Positions 24,809-28,891 of a stretch of 64,000 nucleotides of DNA are shown piece after piece (position 1 is the first letter of the stretch; each line of letters opens with the position of its first letter). The DNA comes from Verrucomicrobiia bacterium (lineage in GTDB: Bacteria; Verrucomicrobiota; Verrucomicrobiia; Limisphaerales; JADLHS01), in assembly GCA_026125285.1 (NCBI GenBank), contig JAHCLO010000003.1:40661-104660 (forward strand), read 5' to 3'. The notes under the pieces are model-generated. The model worked only from the letters and a program-made list of their open reading frames with translations, did not search any database and was not told the origin of the DNA. Position numbers and translations under genes: made by a program.

Positions 24809-25552
24809 ATGTCGGACACGCTGGCGGTCAACGAAATTTACCTGAGTTTGCAGGGCGAGAGCACCTTCGCCGGCCTGCCGTGTGTCTTTGTGCGCCTCAC
24901 GGCCTGCAATCTGCGCTGCTCCTATTGCGACACCGCGTATGCTTTTACGGAAGGAGGAAGAATGGCGCTGGTGGAGGTGCTGGCGCAAGTGCGCAGGCTC
25001 GCCGCGCCATTTTCAGATCCGAAAGCCGAAAGCCGAAAGCCGAAATTGCCGCTGGTTGAACTCACGGGCGGCGAGCCGTTGCTCCAGCAAAATTCTCTGC
25101 CGCTGATGGCGCAGCTTTGCGATGAGGGCTTCACTGTGCTCGTGGAAACCAGTGGCGCGCTGGACATCTCGGACGTTGACCCGCGCGTGCGACGGATCAT
25201 GGATTTGAAATGTCCGAGCAGCGGCGAAGTGACGCGCAATCGCTGGGAGAATGTGTCGCAGCTCAAGGCCACCGATGAAATCAAATTCGTCATCGGCACG
25301 GCGGAGGATTACGACTGGGCGAAGCAGCAGATCGTCGAGCACAAGCTGGACTTGCTTTGTCCGCTGCTCATGTCCTGGGTGCATCCGCTGCGGCCGGAGC
25401 AACAGGACAAATCGCTCAAGCCCGTACCCGCCGGTCAGACGCCCATCACGCGCCAGGCTTTGGTGGAGCGCATCATCGCGGACGCGTTGCCGGTGCGCTT
25501 CCAGGTGCAACTGCACAAAATCATCTGGCCGCCGGAACAGCGGGGAGTTTAG
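24809..25552 (+). CDS. queE: 7-carboxy-7-deazaguanine synthase (radical SAM)
   Basis: EIYLSLQGESTFAGLPCVFVRLTACNLRCSYCDTAYAF, the QueE N-terminal CxxxCxxC cluster context; 247 aa. Confidence 0.85.
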   Translation: MSDTLAVNEIYLSLQGESTFAGLPCVFVRLTACNLRCSYCDTAYAFTEGGRMALVEVLAQVRRLAAPFSDPKAESRKPKLPLVELTGGEPLLQQNSLPLMAQLCDEGFTVLVETSGALDISDVDPRVRRIMDLKCPSSGEVTRNRWENVSQLKATDEIKFVIGTAEDYDWAKQQIVEHKLDLLCPLLMSWVHPLRPEQQDKSLKPVPAGQTPITRQALVERIIADALPVRFQVQLHKIIWPPEQRGV

Positions 25553-25716: not shown

Positions 25717-27069
25717 ATGAATTCCGAACGAACCTTCGCCCTGTTGCGCGACTACGAATCGCGAAACGTTACGTTGCTTGATCCGGACGGATCGTGGCCC
25801 ATCGTGTGGGAATGCGCGAAGGGAGTTCACGTCTGGGACGCGCAGGGGAAAAAGTATCTCGACCTCACGGCGGCGTTCGGTGTGGCGGCGGCGGGCCACG
25901 CGAATCCACGCGTCGTCCGCGCCGGGCAGCGGCAGATGGCAAAGCTGCTCCACGCAATGGGCGACGTGCATCCGCACGCGCTCAAGGCACAACTGGCCCG
26001 GGAGTTGAGCCGGATCACGTTCGAGCGTTGGTCACGCATCACTCATCACGCATCACGAGTCAGCGGCAAGACAATCTTCTGCAACTCCGGTTTCGAGGCC
26101 GTGGAAGCCGCTCTCAAAACCGCGCTGCTGGCCACCGGCAAGCGTGGCGTCATTGCGTTCGAGGGTGCTTATCATGGTTTGGGCTACGGCGCGTTGAACG
26201 CCACGCATCGCGACCACTTTCGCGGAGCGTTCCGCTCGCAACTGCGCGAGTTCGGACATTTCGTTCCTTTTCCTGTAGCAGCCGACGGGAGTCGGCTCCA
26301 ATCAAAGTCCGGGAAAAAGAATGAGCCGACTCACGTCGGCTGCCACGAAGTCGTGAAACGAATCCGCCGGATTCTCAGTCGTGAAAAGATCGGCGCGATG
26401 CTCGTCGAGCCGGTTCAGGCGCGGGGCGGCATCAACGTTCCGCCGCCAGAATTTCTGCCCTTGTTGCGCAGCCTCTGCGACGAGCACGGCGCGTTGCTCA
26501 TCCTCGACGAGATTTACACCGGCTTCGGCCGGACGGGAAAGTGGTTCGCGTGCGAGCATAGCCGCGTCATGCCGGACCTCGTTTGCCTGGGCAAGGCGCT
26601 TACCGGTGGCTTCCCGCTGTCCGCGTGTGTGGGACGCGCCGATGTGATGGACGCCGCGTGGCCGGTGTCGCAAGGCGAGGCCATTCACACCAGCACATTC
26701 CTCGGGCATCCCGTCGGTTGCGCGATGGCGCTGGCACAAATCGCCGAAGTCCGCCGGCTGAAACTTTGGCAGCGCAGCGCGAGATTGGGAAAACTCTTGT
26801 TGGCCGAACTTCAATCCGCCGTCGGCCATCGGCCATCGGTCGTGAGCGCGCGCGGTCTGGGGCTGATGGCTGGCTTGGAGTTGCGGCGCGCGGACGGTTC
26901 GCCGGCCACGGCCGAGTCGCTGCGCCTTATCAAAGCCATGCTGCGCCGCGGTTATATTCTGCTGCCCGAAGGTGAGCATGCGAACGTGATCAGCTTCACC
27001 CCCCCGCTGACGATTTCCGAGCCACAGTTGCGGCGGACGGTGGCAACGCTCGAAGAGGTGCTGTCATGA
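25717..27069 (+). CDS. class III PLP-dependent aminotransferase (substrate unknown)
   Basis: 450 aa; IFCNSGFEAVEAALK, LILDEIYTGFGRTGKWF, CLGKALTGGFP; carries two repeat-derived insertions (see findings). Confidence 0.8.
   Translation: MNSERTFALLRDYESRNVTLLDPDGSWPIVWECAKGVHVWDAQGKKYLDLTAAFGVAAAGHANPRVVRAGQRQMAKLLHAMGDVHPHALKAQLARELSRITFERWSRITHHASRVSGKTIFCNSGFEAVEAALKTALLATGKRGVIAFEGAYHGLGYGALNATHRDHFRGAFRSQLREFGHFVPFPVAADGSRLQSKSGKKNEPTHVGCHEVVKRIRRILSREKIGAMLVEPVQARGGINVPPPEFLPLLRSLCDEHGALLILDEIYTGFGRTGKWFACEHSRVMPDLVCLGKALTGGFPLSACVGRADVMDAAWPVSQGEAIHTSTFLGHPVGCAMALAQIAEVRRLKLWQRSARLGKLLLAELQSAVGHRPSVVSARGLGLMAGLELRRADGSPATAESLRLIKAMLRRGYILLPEGEHANVISFTPPLTISEPQLRRTVATLEEVLS
26278..26343 (+). 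repeat. in-frame 66-nt insertion of two GCCGAC-N4-GTCGGC hairpin units inside aminotransferase CDS
   Basis: gcaGCCGACgggaGTCGGCtc (26278-26298) and gaGCCGACtcacGTCGGCtgc (26323-26343); arms 20/21 complementary; encodes AADGSRLQSKSGKKNEPTHVGC. Confidence 0.75.
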
Positions 27070-28064
27070 AGCTCTCAGAAATGCGCGCCGTGCTGGCCGA
27101 ACGCGGGATTCAACTCACGAAATCCCTGGGGCAAAACTTTCTGCACGACGCGCAGCAACTCGGGCGCATCGTGACGGCGGCGGAGCTAAAGCCGACAGAT
27201 AAGGTGCTGGAAATCGGTCCGGGTCTGGGGCCGTTGACGGAGCTACTGCTGGCGCAAGCCGGGCACGTGTTGGCGATCGAGAAAGACGCCCGGTTGGTGG
27301 CGGTGTTGCGGGAACGATTTGGTTCGTCGCTCGCCCTCACCCCGGCCCTCTCCCCCGGGGAGAGGGGGAACGAGGCGCAGGTCAATCTGATGCCAGCATC
27401 CAACTCTGAACAGCACGCAAAACAGCGACTCCCTCTCCTTGGGGAGAGGGCCGGGGTGAGGGAGGACGTTGAGCCGAAATCCGAAATCCGAAGTCCGAAA
27501 TGGGAATTGCTGCACGCCGACGCGCTGGACTTTTTGCGGCGGGAGGCGCGGGATTGGAGCGATTGGAAACTCGTGGCCAATCTGCCGTACTCCGTGGCGT
27601 CTCCGATTCTGGTGGAACTGGCGCTGACCCCGAAACGCCCCGAACGCATGGTGGTGACGTTGCAACTGGAAGTGGCGCAGCGCTTGATGGCCGGCACGGA
27701 CAACGACGATTACGGCGTGCTGACGCTGTTGGTGCAACTTGATTACGAACCGCGCGGCTGGTTCAAGATTCCGGCGGTTTGTTTTTTTCCCGTGCCGGAC
27801 GTGGGCTCGGCGTGCGTCACACTCGTCCGCCGCGCGCAGCCGTTGCTGCCAGAGACGCACCGGGCCGCGTTCGTGAAGATCGTGAAACGCGCGTTCTCGC
27901 AACGACGGAAAATGATGCTCAAGCTCCTGAAACAAGATTGGACGGCGGAGGCGCTCGAACCCGCGTTTGCAGAGCTGCAAATCTCACCGCAGGAGCGCGC
28001 GGAAAAGTTGAGCTTGGAACAATTCGTTGACCTGACTCATCATCTGGTGTCGCCGCACGAATGA
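27066..28064 (+). CDS. rsmA: 16S rRNA (adenine1518/1519-N6)-dimethyltransferase with ~60-aa repeat-derived insertion
   Basis: LTKSLGQNFLHD, VLEIGPGLGPLTELL, NLPYSVASPIL, RRKM motifs of KsgA/RsmA; 332 aa versus the usual ~260-290. Confidence 0.85.
   Translation: MKLSEMRAVLAERGIQLTKSLGQNFLHDAQQLGRIVTAAELKPTDKVLEIGPGLGPLTELLLAQAGHVLAIEKDARLVAVLRERFGSSLALTPALSPGERGNEAQVNLMPASNSEQHAKQRLPLLGERAGVREDVEPKSEIRSPKWELLHADALDFLRREARDWSDWKLVANLPYSVASPILVELALTPKRPERMVVTLQLEVAQRLMAGTDNDDYGVLTLLVQLDYEPRGWFKIPAVCFFPVPDVGSACVTLVRRAQPLLPETHRAAFVKIVKRAFSQRRKMMLKLLKQDWTAEALEPAFAELQISPQERAEKLSLEQFVDLTHHLVSPHE
27334..27501 (+). repeat. palindromic element plus CCGAAAT heptamer tract inserted in-frame in rsmA
   Basis: Perfect 22-nt inverted repeat ccctcaccccggccctctcccc (27334-27355) / ggggagagggccggggtgaggg (27441-27462), 85 nt apart; followed by ccgaaat ccgaaat ccgaagt ccgaaat (27474-27501). 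Confidence 0.8.
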
Positions 28065-28891
28065 AACGTCCCAAGACGCCAAAACAACCGCTGCTGCCCG
28101 GCGCCGGAAAGCTCAGTCTCGGCCCACGACCGGCCCGGCGGTATTTGGAAGCCGTGCGTTTGGAACGCGAGGCGGTGTCTGACTTCGACCAATACCCCTT
28201 CTCGATTCCAAGCATCCGGCATCTAACCCGATTGGAATTTCATCCGGCGGTGACGTTCTTTATCGGTGAAAACGGTTCCGGCAAATCCACGTTGCTGGAA
28301 GCGATCGCGGTCAAAGCGGGTTTCAGCGCCGAGGGCGGGGACAGGCAATTGCAGTTCGGCACGCATGACACCCATTCGCCGCTGCACAACTGCCTGCGAC
28401 TCGAGCGGAGTCTGGGGCGACCTACGGACGGCTTCTTTCTTCGCGCGGAGAGCTTTTACAACGTGGCGAGCGCGCTGGAGGCAATGGGTTCGTCTTTTCA
28501 CGCCTACGGGGGCAAGTCACTCCACAAGCAGTCTCACGGCGAATCATTTCTAGCGGTGCTGAAGGAACGCTTGCAAGGTGGCGGGGTGTATCTCTTCGAT
28601 GAGCCGGAAGCCGCGCTTTCCCCCCAGCGACAATTGAGCGTGCTCACGCTCATGCACCGGCTGGTACATCATCAGTCCCAGTTGGTCATTGCGACCCACT
28701 CGCCGATCCTGCTTGCGTATCCGAACGCCCGCATATTTCAGTTCGAGGAATGGGGGATTTCCGAAGTTAACTACACGGATACGGAGCACTTCTTGATCAC
28801 GCGGGATTTCCTGAACCGTCATGAGCGAATGTTGGAAATTCTACTCGACGCCGAGGACGCGGACTTGGAAGCAACCAAATGGAAGTTATGA
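28061..28891 (+). CDS. ABC-type/AAA ATPase-fold protein, function unknown
   Basis: Walker A FFIGENGSGKSTLLEAI, Q-loop/signature-like SHGESF, Walker B VYLFDEPEAALSP, H-loop IATHSPILL; ATGA overlap with rsmA stop. Confidence 0.7.
   Translation: MKRPKTPKQPLLPGAGKLSLGPRPARRYLEAVRLEREAVSDFDQYPFSIPSIRHLTRLEFHPAVTFFIGENGSGKSTLLEAIAVKAGFSAEGGDRQLQFGTHDTHSPLHNCLRLERSLGRPTDGFFLRAESFYNVASALEAMGSSFHAYGGKSLHKQSHGESFLAVLKERLQGGGVYLFDEPEAALSPQRQLSVLTLMHRLVHHQSQLVIATHSPILLAYPNARIFQFEEWGISEVNYTDTEHFLITRDFLNRHERMLEILLDAEDADLEATKWKL

Follow-up and report, generated by a model that had tools for sequence, protein, structure and literature searches.

An in-frame pair of inverted BoxC/TMECO units in the rsmA gene of a Verrucomicrobiia bacterium, probably carried as a tolerated disordered loop

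The gene rsmA (ksgA) is found at 27066..28064 on the plus strand of a 64,000-nt stretch of DNA from a soil-type Verrucomicrobiia bacterium (GenBank assembly GCA_026125285.1, contig JAHCLO010000003.1, positions 40,661 to 104,660), which is called the window here. Its coding sequence is intact, with an open frame of 332 amino acids (aa), and carries an insert. The insert contains a palindromic repeat whose two inverted arms are assigned below to the BoxC/PIT/TMECO motif. We consider it likely that this BoxC pair was inserted once and is translated as a tolerated, disordered loop of RsmA. The rsmA product matches the NCBIfam ksgA equivalog TIGR00755 with 214 bits (cut-off 171), and its Pfam RrnaAD match is broken by the insert into two stretches. 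Residues GQNF (22-25), ExGxGxG (49-55), E72/D74 and NLPY (172-175) are the invariant RsmA motifs in an alignment of 30 orthologues. A Foldseek comparison of the predicted RsmA model with KsgA structures gives E values of about 1e-23 and target-normalised TM-scores of 0.79-0.90. In the AlphaFold2 model the predicted local distance difference test score (pLDDT) is mostly >90 for the core and <50 for residues 89-139, which are flanked by a helix (75-86) and a strand (145-150).

A comparison with other RsmA proteins reveals 60 additional codons between ...LRERF and WELLHAD. KsgA from B. subtilis (6IFS) aligns with residues 7-85 and 140-327, and its own intervening loop has 4 residues. Alignments with insert-free orthologues, whose matched stretches measure about 266-275 aa, bound the extra coding segment at 27321..27500 (plus strand), corresponding to aa 86-145, GSSLALTPALSPGERG...LPLLGERAGVREDVEPKSEIRSPK. 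At this site 3-6 residues are observed in outgroup RsmA and 3-12 across the outgroups and many family members. The other families of the same order have a 6-residue loop, and some members of the own family have a minimal 'FPQLN' loop. Taken together, the KsgA alignment, the orthologues and the low-pLDDT stretch assign the extra segment, aa 86-145, to a loop on the surface of the Rossmann domain. In the model the KsgA core that bears this loop is folded with confidence, and the insert is predicted to be disordered. A sequence-only reading of the window had proposed a frame-preserving insertion that makes RsmA ~50-60 aa longer than usual, and both the open frame and the number of extra codons bear this out. 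Homologous segments do occur in rsmA of other genera, which would speak for an ancestral RsmA loop; an assembly artefact has been considered as well. However, distant RsmA proteins lack the segment, and the loop is short in all genomes from other families of the order and in the solved KsgA structures. Furthermore, the arms are repeated genome-wide, and seven independent assemblies have the segment at the same position. An ancestral loop or an artefact is thus already contradicted and scarcely tenable.

The composite palindromic repeat is 161 nt long (27318..27478, no strand assigned) and consists of two inverted BoxC/TMECO units enclosing a 64-nt unique interior. The perfect 22-nt inverted repeat recognized in the sequence-only reading, CCCTCACCCCGGCCCTCTCCCC, is present at 27334-27355 on the plus strand and at 27441-27462 on the minus strand, with 0 matches in 100 shuffles. 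The full arms extend to 38 nt (27318-27355 and 27441-27478) and are 82% complementary. Each of them contains a local 10-bp hairpin, CCCTCTCCCC/GGGGAGAGGG, in line with the local folding suggested before. Folded as RNA, the 161-nt element is predicted to form a single long hairpin with -103.8 kcal/mol (z = -9.2); as DNA the value is -48.7 kcal/mol (z = -6.1). The left unit (27334..27366), C-rich on the plus strand, reads CCCTCACCC-CGG-CCCTCTCCC-CCG-GGGAGAGGG and matches the strict TMECO consensus on the minus strand. It is nearly invariant over six orthologues. The right unit (27431..27462, plus strand), G-rich on the plus strand, reads CCCTCTCC-TTG-GGGAGAGGG-CCG-GGGTGAGGG, with the type B loop CCG. 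The interior between them (27367..27430, plus strand) is unique in the genome, blastn with 27369-27428 returning the self-match and no second copy. It is homologous among the rsmA orthologues and shows a weakly constrained, coding-like evolution. The four-unit CCGAAAT-type tract reported to follow the palindrome is found at 27474..27501 (plus strand) as CCGAAAT, CCGAAAT, CCGAAGT, CCGAAAT. This heptanucleotide tract, (CCGAAAT)x4 with one deviating unit, is read as PKSEIRSPK and represents a separate repeat class.

The consensus of TMECO, an intrastrand-triplex motif, is CCCTCNCCC-N3-6-GGGNGAGGG-N3-GGGNGAGGG, namely a C-stem followed by two G-stems (Holder et al. 2015, PMC4666352). That study, in which earlier work on the motif by Bergler and by Hoyne/Maher is cited, surveyed 3610 copies in 262 proteobacterial genomes. 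The copies are described there as 'extraordinary' in mutual identity and as strictly intergenic in E. coli MG1655, with no tie to known mobile elements, no assigned function and a raised local instability (PMC4666352). In the element of rsmA, the left arm (27334-27366) is a strict fit to the consensus, and the right arm (27431-27462) fits when an 8-nt C-stem is allowed. The genome contains 49 strict and 83 relaxed matches to the consensus, and the reversed-sequence control contains 0. Among the strict matches, 21 of 49 lie within genes predicted by our simple, home-made caller, a crude tool that is based on codon usage and covers 77.5% of the genome. With 27425-27470 as the query, blastn returns matches from 4517 of the 5426 complete E. 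coli genomes, at a median of 6 places each. The E. coli matches to the right arm are mostly 90-95% identical, the best being 97% over 34 nt. One E. coli site was examined, an inverted pair downstream of hrpB with a G-rich unit, an 18-nt spacer and a C-rich unit. On inspection, the triad at the variable position (T, A, T) equals that of E. coli. The motif is found in 7 of 151 evenly drawn Verrucomicrobiota genomes, with 36-49 copies in four of them, and in 31 of the 41 closest relatives, which have from 0 to 121 strict TMECO matches per genome. By their sequence, the arms of the element belong to the BoxC/TMECO motif family.

The Rfam scan of the window gave nothing at gathering score and no intron family. 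Repeated sub-threshold matches to whalefall-1 (RF01762) of 25-30 bits, with a gathering score of 37, are observed at the right unit (27429-27467; 29.7 bits) and at loci L064-L068 and L075. The metagenomic whalefall-1 'RNA motif' may thus be related to BoxC/TMECO. Rfam matches of repeat-family copies to long-hairpin microRNAs were discarded as spurious.

The host assembly has 7.16 Mb in 79 contigs, with 60% GC and 95% completeness. The 22-mer is present in 34 exact copies and in 142 copies with ≤3 mismatches. The rsmA segment is thus one copy of a genome-wide palindromic repeat, as the earlier suggestion of a REP (repetitive extragenic palindromic)- or MITE (miniature inverted-repeat transposable element)-like insertion implied. 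Of the two findings that the sequence-only reading had named as refuting, a unique 22-mer and a homologous segment in distant orthologues, neither was obtained. Arm pairs in the order plus then minus number 49, and the 46 of them with an arm spacing ≤200 nt were analysed. Their spacings fall mainly into two classes, 127-129 and 168-171 nt, and the rsmA copy is the shortest with 107 nt. In the alignment of the 46 copies the left end (...ACGCTCG-CCCTCACCCYGRCCCTCTCCCC-CGGGGAGAGGG...) and the right end (...TTCTCCCTCTCC-YGG-GGGAGAGGGCCGGGGTGAGGG-CGRGCGT...) are conserved while the interiors are diverged. RNAalifold on the 129-class and 169-class copies yields the terminal stems only and no consensus structure in the interiors.

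Among these 46 copies, 27 are intergenic, 4 lie over gene ends and 15 lie within predicted genes. A stricter test, by which the frame must be open through the element and coding-like sequence must be present on both sides, is passed by 11 of the 15. Hosts that could be named by Pfam include ValS, DnaE, PurL, a NuoE/F-like protein, a GH9 glycosidase, a DNA methylase and an FtsX-type permease. A single Pfam domain match bridges the element in ValS and GH9, and the AIRS match of PurL is split into several stretches. Copies of the long class are nearly all intergenic, and the in-gene copies are short ones. No orientation bias relative to the flanking genes is observed for intergenic copies (14 vs 11). 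The in-gene copies are biased (13 vs 2), for which a TGA in one frame of one orientation is a sufficient explanation. The family had been thought to be active and biased for in-frame survival. Family membership holds, and in-frame copies do exist. However, the rsmA copy is an old one that several genera have in common and does not testify to present activity of the family, and the in-frame copies are best read as the result of a selection filter on frame-keeping copies in permissive loops. As a separate observation, DnaE (G000:C37:17525-22081, L079) is one open frame of 1518 aa, with a BoxC-pair element at aa 348-402. It also holds an in-frame Y1_Tnp segment of the IS200/RAYT type (PF01797, 28 bits; C37:20687-20911), which is located between the finger and HHH domains and has hairpin-repeat peptides on both sides.

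Within the 64-kb window the 22-mer family occurs in rsmA alone. The claim that three neighbouring genes contain the same style of element therefore stands for repeat insertions as such, which are present there, but not for this family, since they belong to others. In queE (24809-25552) an in-frame tract, (CCGAAAG)x3 followed by CCGAAAT, is found at 25019-25046 and read as PKAESRKPKL. The class III aminotransferase (25717-27069) contains, around 26278-26343, an apparent in-frame hairpin repeat of another family, ...SRLQSKSGKKNEPTHVGCH..., which is of the GTAG type and has the sense-strand end ...GTTGCTAC. Downstream, rsmA overlaps a 276-aa ABC-type ATPase-like open reading frame (ORF) by ATGA (28061-28064), and the latter shares 13 nt with a NUDIX-like ORF (28879-28891).

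The genomes compared here are all metagenome-assembled. The same element at the same rsmA site is found in G006, G008, G016, G017, G018 and the metagenome-assembled genome (MAG) L031, so that with the host gene seven rsmA copies are known, spanning at least 4 GTDB genera. The interiors of these copies are mutually alignable, hence homologous, and the interior has no other copy in the host genome. A single origin of the rsmA insertion is thus indicated, and we infer one old insertion in the ancestor of several genera with subsequent losses. In G011, rsmA retains just the first 21 nt of the element, TTTGGTTCAACGCTCGCCCTC, joined to the heptamer array of that gene, a deletion remnant. In the rsmA of G017 (L006/L046) the element itself contains a further hairpin repeat, 129 nt long and of unrelated sequence (...RSPDRLDSNPDLQQADLEIGAPR...), which again keeps the frame. 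The right BoxC arm of G017 is decaying, and its genome has 2 strict TMECO matches. To be noted, the MAG records L032, L033, L035, L037, L041 and L047 are titled 'uncultured Bifidobacterium sp.' or 'Bifidobacteriaceae', yet they are of the verrucomicrobial family by RsmA identity and synteny. The records appear to be mislabelled.

The frame is open in 7 of 7 rsmA copies, and all insertions and deletions are multiples of 3, including the nested 129-nt insertion of G017. In the interior the identity at codon positions 1, 2 and 3 is 0.67, 0.66 and 0.48, respectively, and the amino-acid identity is 0.42. Since its third positions are less conserved than the first and second, the interior bears the signature of a translated, weakly constrained segment. 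The insert peptide (61 aa) has no NCBIfam match at E ≤ 0.01. These data point indirectly to translation of the insert together with RsmA as a disordered loop, and tolerance would be the reason for its persistence. A strong secondary structure and a sharply bounded insertion would also suit an element that is removed before the mature protein is made, like an intron or an intein. However, no Rfam intron family, no NCBIfam match and, by eye, no intein-like motifs are found, and the codon-position-dependent divergence of the interior with in-frame insertions and deletions only makes such a removal very improbable.

The conservation of the arms was evaluated as nucleotides in six orthologous rsmA copies. 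For codons of the same residue, the third-position identity in pairwise, synonymous-type comparison is 0.91 and 0.90 in the two arms, 0.91 in the heptamer tract, 0.62-0.63 in the rsmA core and 0.45 in the interior. The third position is invariant in all six copies for 23 of 30 arm codons (77%), 5 of 10 codons of the heptamer tract, 57 of 270 core codons (21%) and 2 of 20 interior codons. The difference between arms and core in invariant third positions has a Fisher p = 2e-9. The ValS copy shows the same contrast of arm over core when G000 is compared with G008. The rsmA copies also have common deviations from the family consensus, ...GAGGGAGGAC..., the loop TTGG and ...GGGAGAACGA....

A possible explanation, which we put forward tentatively and as an addition to the tolerated insertion rather than a replacement, is that the arms are kept for a role at the nucleic-acid level, either within rsmA or at the level of the genome. 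They might bind a conserved factor, form a hairpin that tunes rsmA through RNase III or translation pausing, or serve as a structure for replication or repair. Both conservation measures given above, the invariant third positions and the pairwise identities, favour such a role, and the deviations common to the rsmA copies argue for constraint in place and not for copying from the family. Furthermore, the ValS copy has the same pattern between two genera, the motif is nearly identical in E. coli, and an mRNA hairpin of -104 kcal/mol is predicted to be possible. In contrast, no function of BoxC/PIT/TMECO has been found in E. coli: it acts neither as a promoter nor as a terminator, and a stable triplex was not detected in vivo (PMC4666352). 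The rsmA copy is moreover deleted in many lineages without apparent harm, and its right arm is decaying in G016 and G017, both with few family copies.

The same constancy could be produced by concerted evolution. The arms would then be reset repeatedly by gene conversion, with the many other genomic copies as donors, and the rsmA copy itself would not be under selection. There are dozens of potential donors per genome, within the range of 0-121 strict TMECO matches per relative, and the most degraded right arms are found in genomes that are poor in family copies, G017 (2) and G016 (9). However, the rsmA copies of six genomes hold states off the family consensus, which conversion should erase, and G018, with 113 copies, has two changes in its rsmA right arm. 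As the rsmA-specific deviations are retained, resetting by gene conversion is not an obvious cause of the arm conservation, and we regard it as unlikely. A gain at the protein level, such as a new interaction surface of RsmA, is still less probable. The insert is retained while the RsmA core is only about 77-79% identical, and the arm-encoded peptides LTPALSPGER and LLGERAGVRED are conserved, which would suit exaptation. Yet this peptide conservation is accounted for by the conservation of the arms as nucleotides. The interior is just 42% identical in a segment predicted to be disordered, and the segment is lost in several lineages, and others have unrelated repeats at the same site.

It is conceivable, if less probable than not, that a direct and sequence-specific constraint acts on BoxC/TMECO units wherever they are located, even in essential frames. 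If so, they would be working nucleic-acid modules from Enterobacteria to Verrucomicrobiota and not inert debris. They could, for example, be bound by a conserved protein or form a structure for replication, repair or their own copying. In addition, the local instability of the motif in E. coli could then make certain protein loops hot spots for the insertion and deletion of repeats.

Other repeats occupy the same RsmA loop in the relatives. A 'VGQASRLSP...ETGATPVL' hairpin is found in some, including G001 and G003, the two same-genus genomes with a readable loop. Others have an 'ESRLQPVGR...GGTPN' hairpin or a single BoxC-like unit, 'LTPSLSSSDGERV..GEG'. Heptanucleotide arrays with a lineage-specific unit (TTCAAAA, CTCAAAA, TCCACAA, CTCCGCA, CTTCCAA or CCGAAAT) are also observed in this loop, and in L040, L024, L017, L015, L014, L019, L012 and L036 the frame is always open through them. 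Judged from these alignments, the RsmA loop is a hot spot for repeat insertion. In the host genome 41 CCGAAAT-type tracts are found. Predicted ORFs contain 28 of these, for which SEIRNPK is the usual reading. The second hot spot is a loop of ValS between FKVQVAE and WLTIATTRPET (G000:C23:202120-205512, L078). Its ancestral state is 4 residues, and at least 5 repeat families are found there in relatives (L085-L114). The occupants are the BoxC pair, a single BoxC-like unit, 'VVGQAPSP...', 'DATPSS...DGGVAAT', other segments, or nothing. Another repeat-derived insertion splits the anticodon-binding domain of this ValS.

Several results weigh against a single, tolerated insertion. On an RsmA tree that was built without the loop and has many unresolved nodes, the element-bearing genes are interspersed with element-free ones, in some cases with high support values, such as 99/99 for the grouping of L031 with L042, L043 and L045. 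This scattered distribution requires several clean losses or allele exchange. The 46 copies, whose exact ends are uncertain, are not consistently bordered by a direct repeat that would mark a target-site duplication. No autonomous parent element was identified, Y1 alone among the transposases having been examined. The assembly has 11 matches to PF01797 (Y1/RAYT-like), and none has an arm with ≤5 mismatches within 1.5 kb. Finally, the arms are far more conserved than the synonymous sites of the host gene, which a model of purely tolerated junk does not explain. A RAYT/Y1 transposase as the mobiliser was rejected, as no PF01797 gene of the assembly adjoins the arms.

On balance we hold the tolerated BoxC-pair insertion to be the probable account, and it would have proceeded as follows. 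A non-autonomous element of two inverted BoxC/PIT/TMECO units would have been inserted once, in the ancestor of several genera of the family. The site would be the Rossmann-domain loop between the helix that follows strand beta-2 and strand beta-3, adjoining a slippage-prone heptanucleotide array of the type that also fills the loop in relatives. The copy could persist by its frame-keeping length, by having no stop in the frame used and by the permissiveness of the loop. Its product would be a disordered loop of roughly 50-60 residues, rich in Pro, Gly, Glu and Arg, which leaves the methyltransferase core unaffected. Later the element would have been inherited, with some lineages losing all or part of it and one acquiring a second element within it. 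The same process would also have taken place in other housekeeping genes of the genome that carry copies of the same family.

In the literature on BoxC/TMECO, RPE and REP that was consulted (PMC4666352, PMC10969869, PMC3733652) we found no prior description of BoxC/TMECO units in Verrucomicrobiota, of such units in frame in essential genes or conserved beyond synonymous drift across genera, or of the same protein loops being used repeatedly by several repeat families. The present case joins in-frame selfish DNA, known from Rickettsia (2000) and one verrucomicrobium (2013), with BoxC/TMECO, an abundant E. coli repeat the role of which has been open for thirty years. It takes the motif beyond its described range, to a distant phylum and to essential genes. 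In-frame copies also come with a neutral reference of their own, in the third positions of the host codons. This built-in control shows that something besides protein coding holds the motif constant, and on the reading of direct constraint it is what exposes that constraint. The RsmA and ValS loops offer natural test beds for how proteins tolerate or acquire new segments. On the practical side, insertions of this kind can lead domain assignment astray in Verrucomicrobiota genomes and can confuse quality filters that rely on length.

A comparison with known systems places the element close to several of them. Bacterial MITEs such as the Correia element and the Coxiella QMITE (reviewed in PMC10969869) are likewise short, non-coding and multi-copy, with long terminal inverted repeats and occasional in-frame fusion to host ORFs. 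The terminal inverted repeats measure 38 nt in rsmA, and the conserved ends of the intergenic copies reach about 20 nt beyond the 22-mer. Different from MITEs, as far as the uncertain element ends allow, the family shows no visible target-site duplication and no related transposase-bearing element (Y1 only examined), and its interiors are highly diverged while the ends are constant. Intragenic REPs with a GTAG or CGTC tag have been described, including those of the verrucomicrobium Opitutus terrae (Di Nocera et al. 2013, PMC3733652). Similar to REPs and REPINs, the element is an inverted doublet of hairpin units that is able to form one long hairpin. Its copies are mostly intergenic between co-directional genes, and a minority are in frame in genes, including replication genes (DnaE here). 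Different from them, the family consensus has no GTAG tag beside the hairpins. The outer consensus (...ACGCTCG / CGrGCGT...) yields CGTC in some copies only, for example at the left end in rsmA, as seen by unsystematic inspection. Moreover, the units are triplex-type BoxC and not simple REP hairpins, and, in contrast to the REP/REPIN-RAYT association, none of the 11 Y1 genes has arms within 1.5 kb.

The likeness to BoxC/PIT/TMECO itself lies in the fit of both arms to the consensus, including the type B second loop 'CCG', in the high copy number with strong over-representation, and in the inverted pairs found both in E. coli and here. Presence is very patchy in related genomes as well, and deletions and nested insertions attest to an unstable neighbourhood. 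However, copies are reported as always intergenic in E. coli MG1655, whereas 21 of 49 lie in genes here, some in frame in essential genes, and the survey reported Proteobacteria rather than Verrucomicrobiota. The units also face outward here, with an interior of 64-105 nt and about 16-20 nt of further conserved inverted sequence.

A parallel in behaviour is RPE-1 and its relatives, the in-frame palindromic repeats of Rickettsia (Ogata et al. 2000, as presented in PMC10969869 and PMC3733652). Like these, the present repeats are palindromes of about 100-150 nt in frame in unrelated housekeeping genes, where they add surface peptides that the fold can accommodate. The sequences are unrelated, and the insert peptide is without a match at E ≤ 0.01 in NCBIfam, which includes an RPE1 model (TIGR01045). 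The host differs too, being free-living with a GC-rich 7-Mb genome, and so do the conservation of the arms as nucleotides across genera and the use of the same loops by several unrelated families. By analogy, the phenomenon is selfish DNA of the Rickettsia RPE kind, which in RsmA would be translated as a disordered loop.

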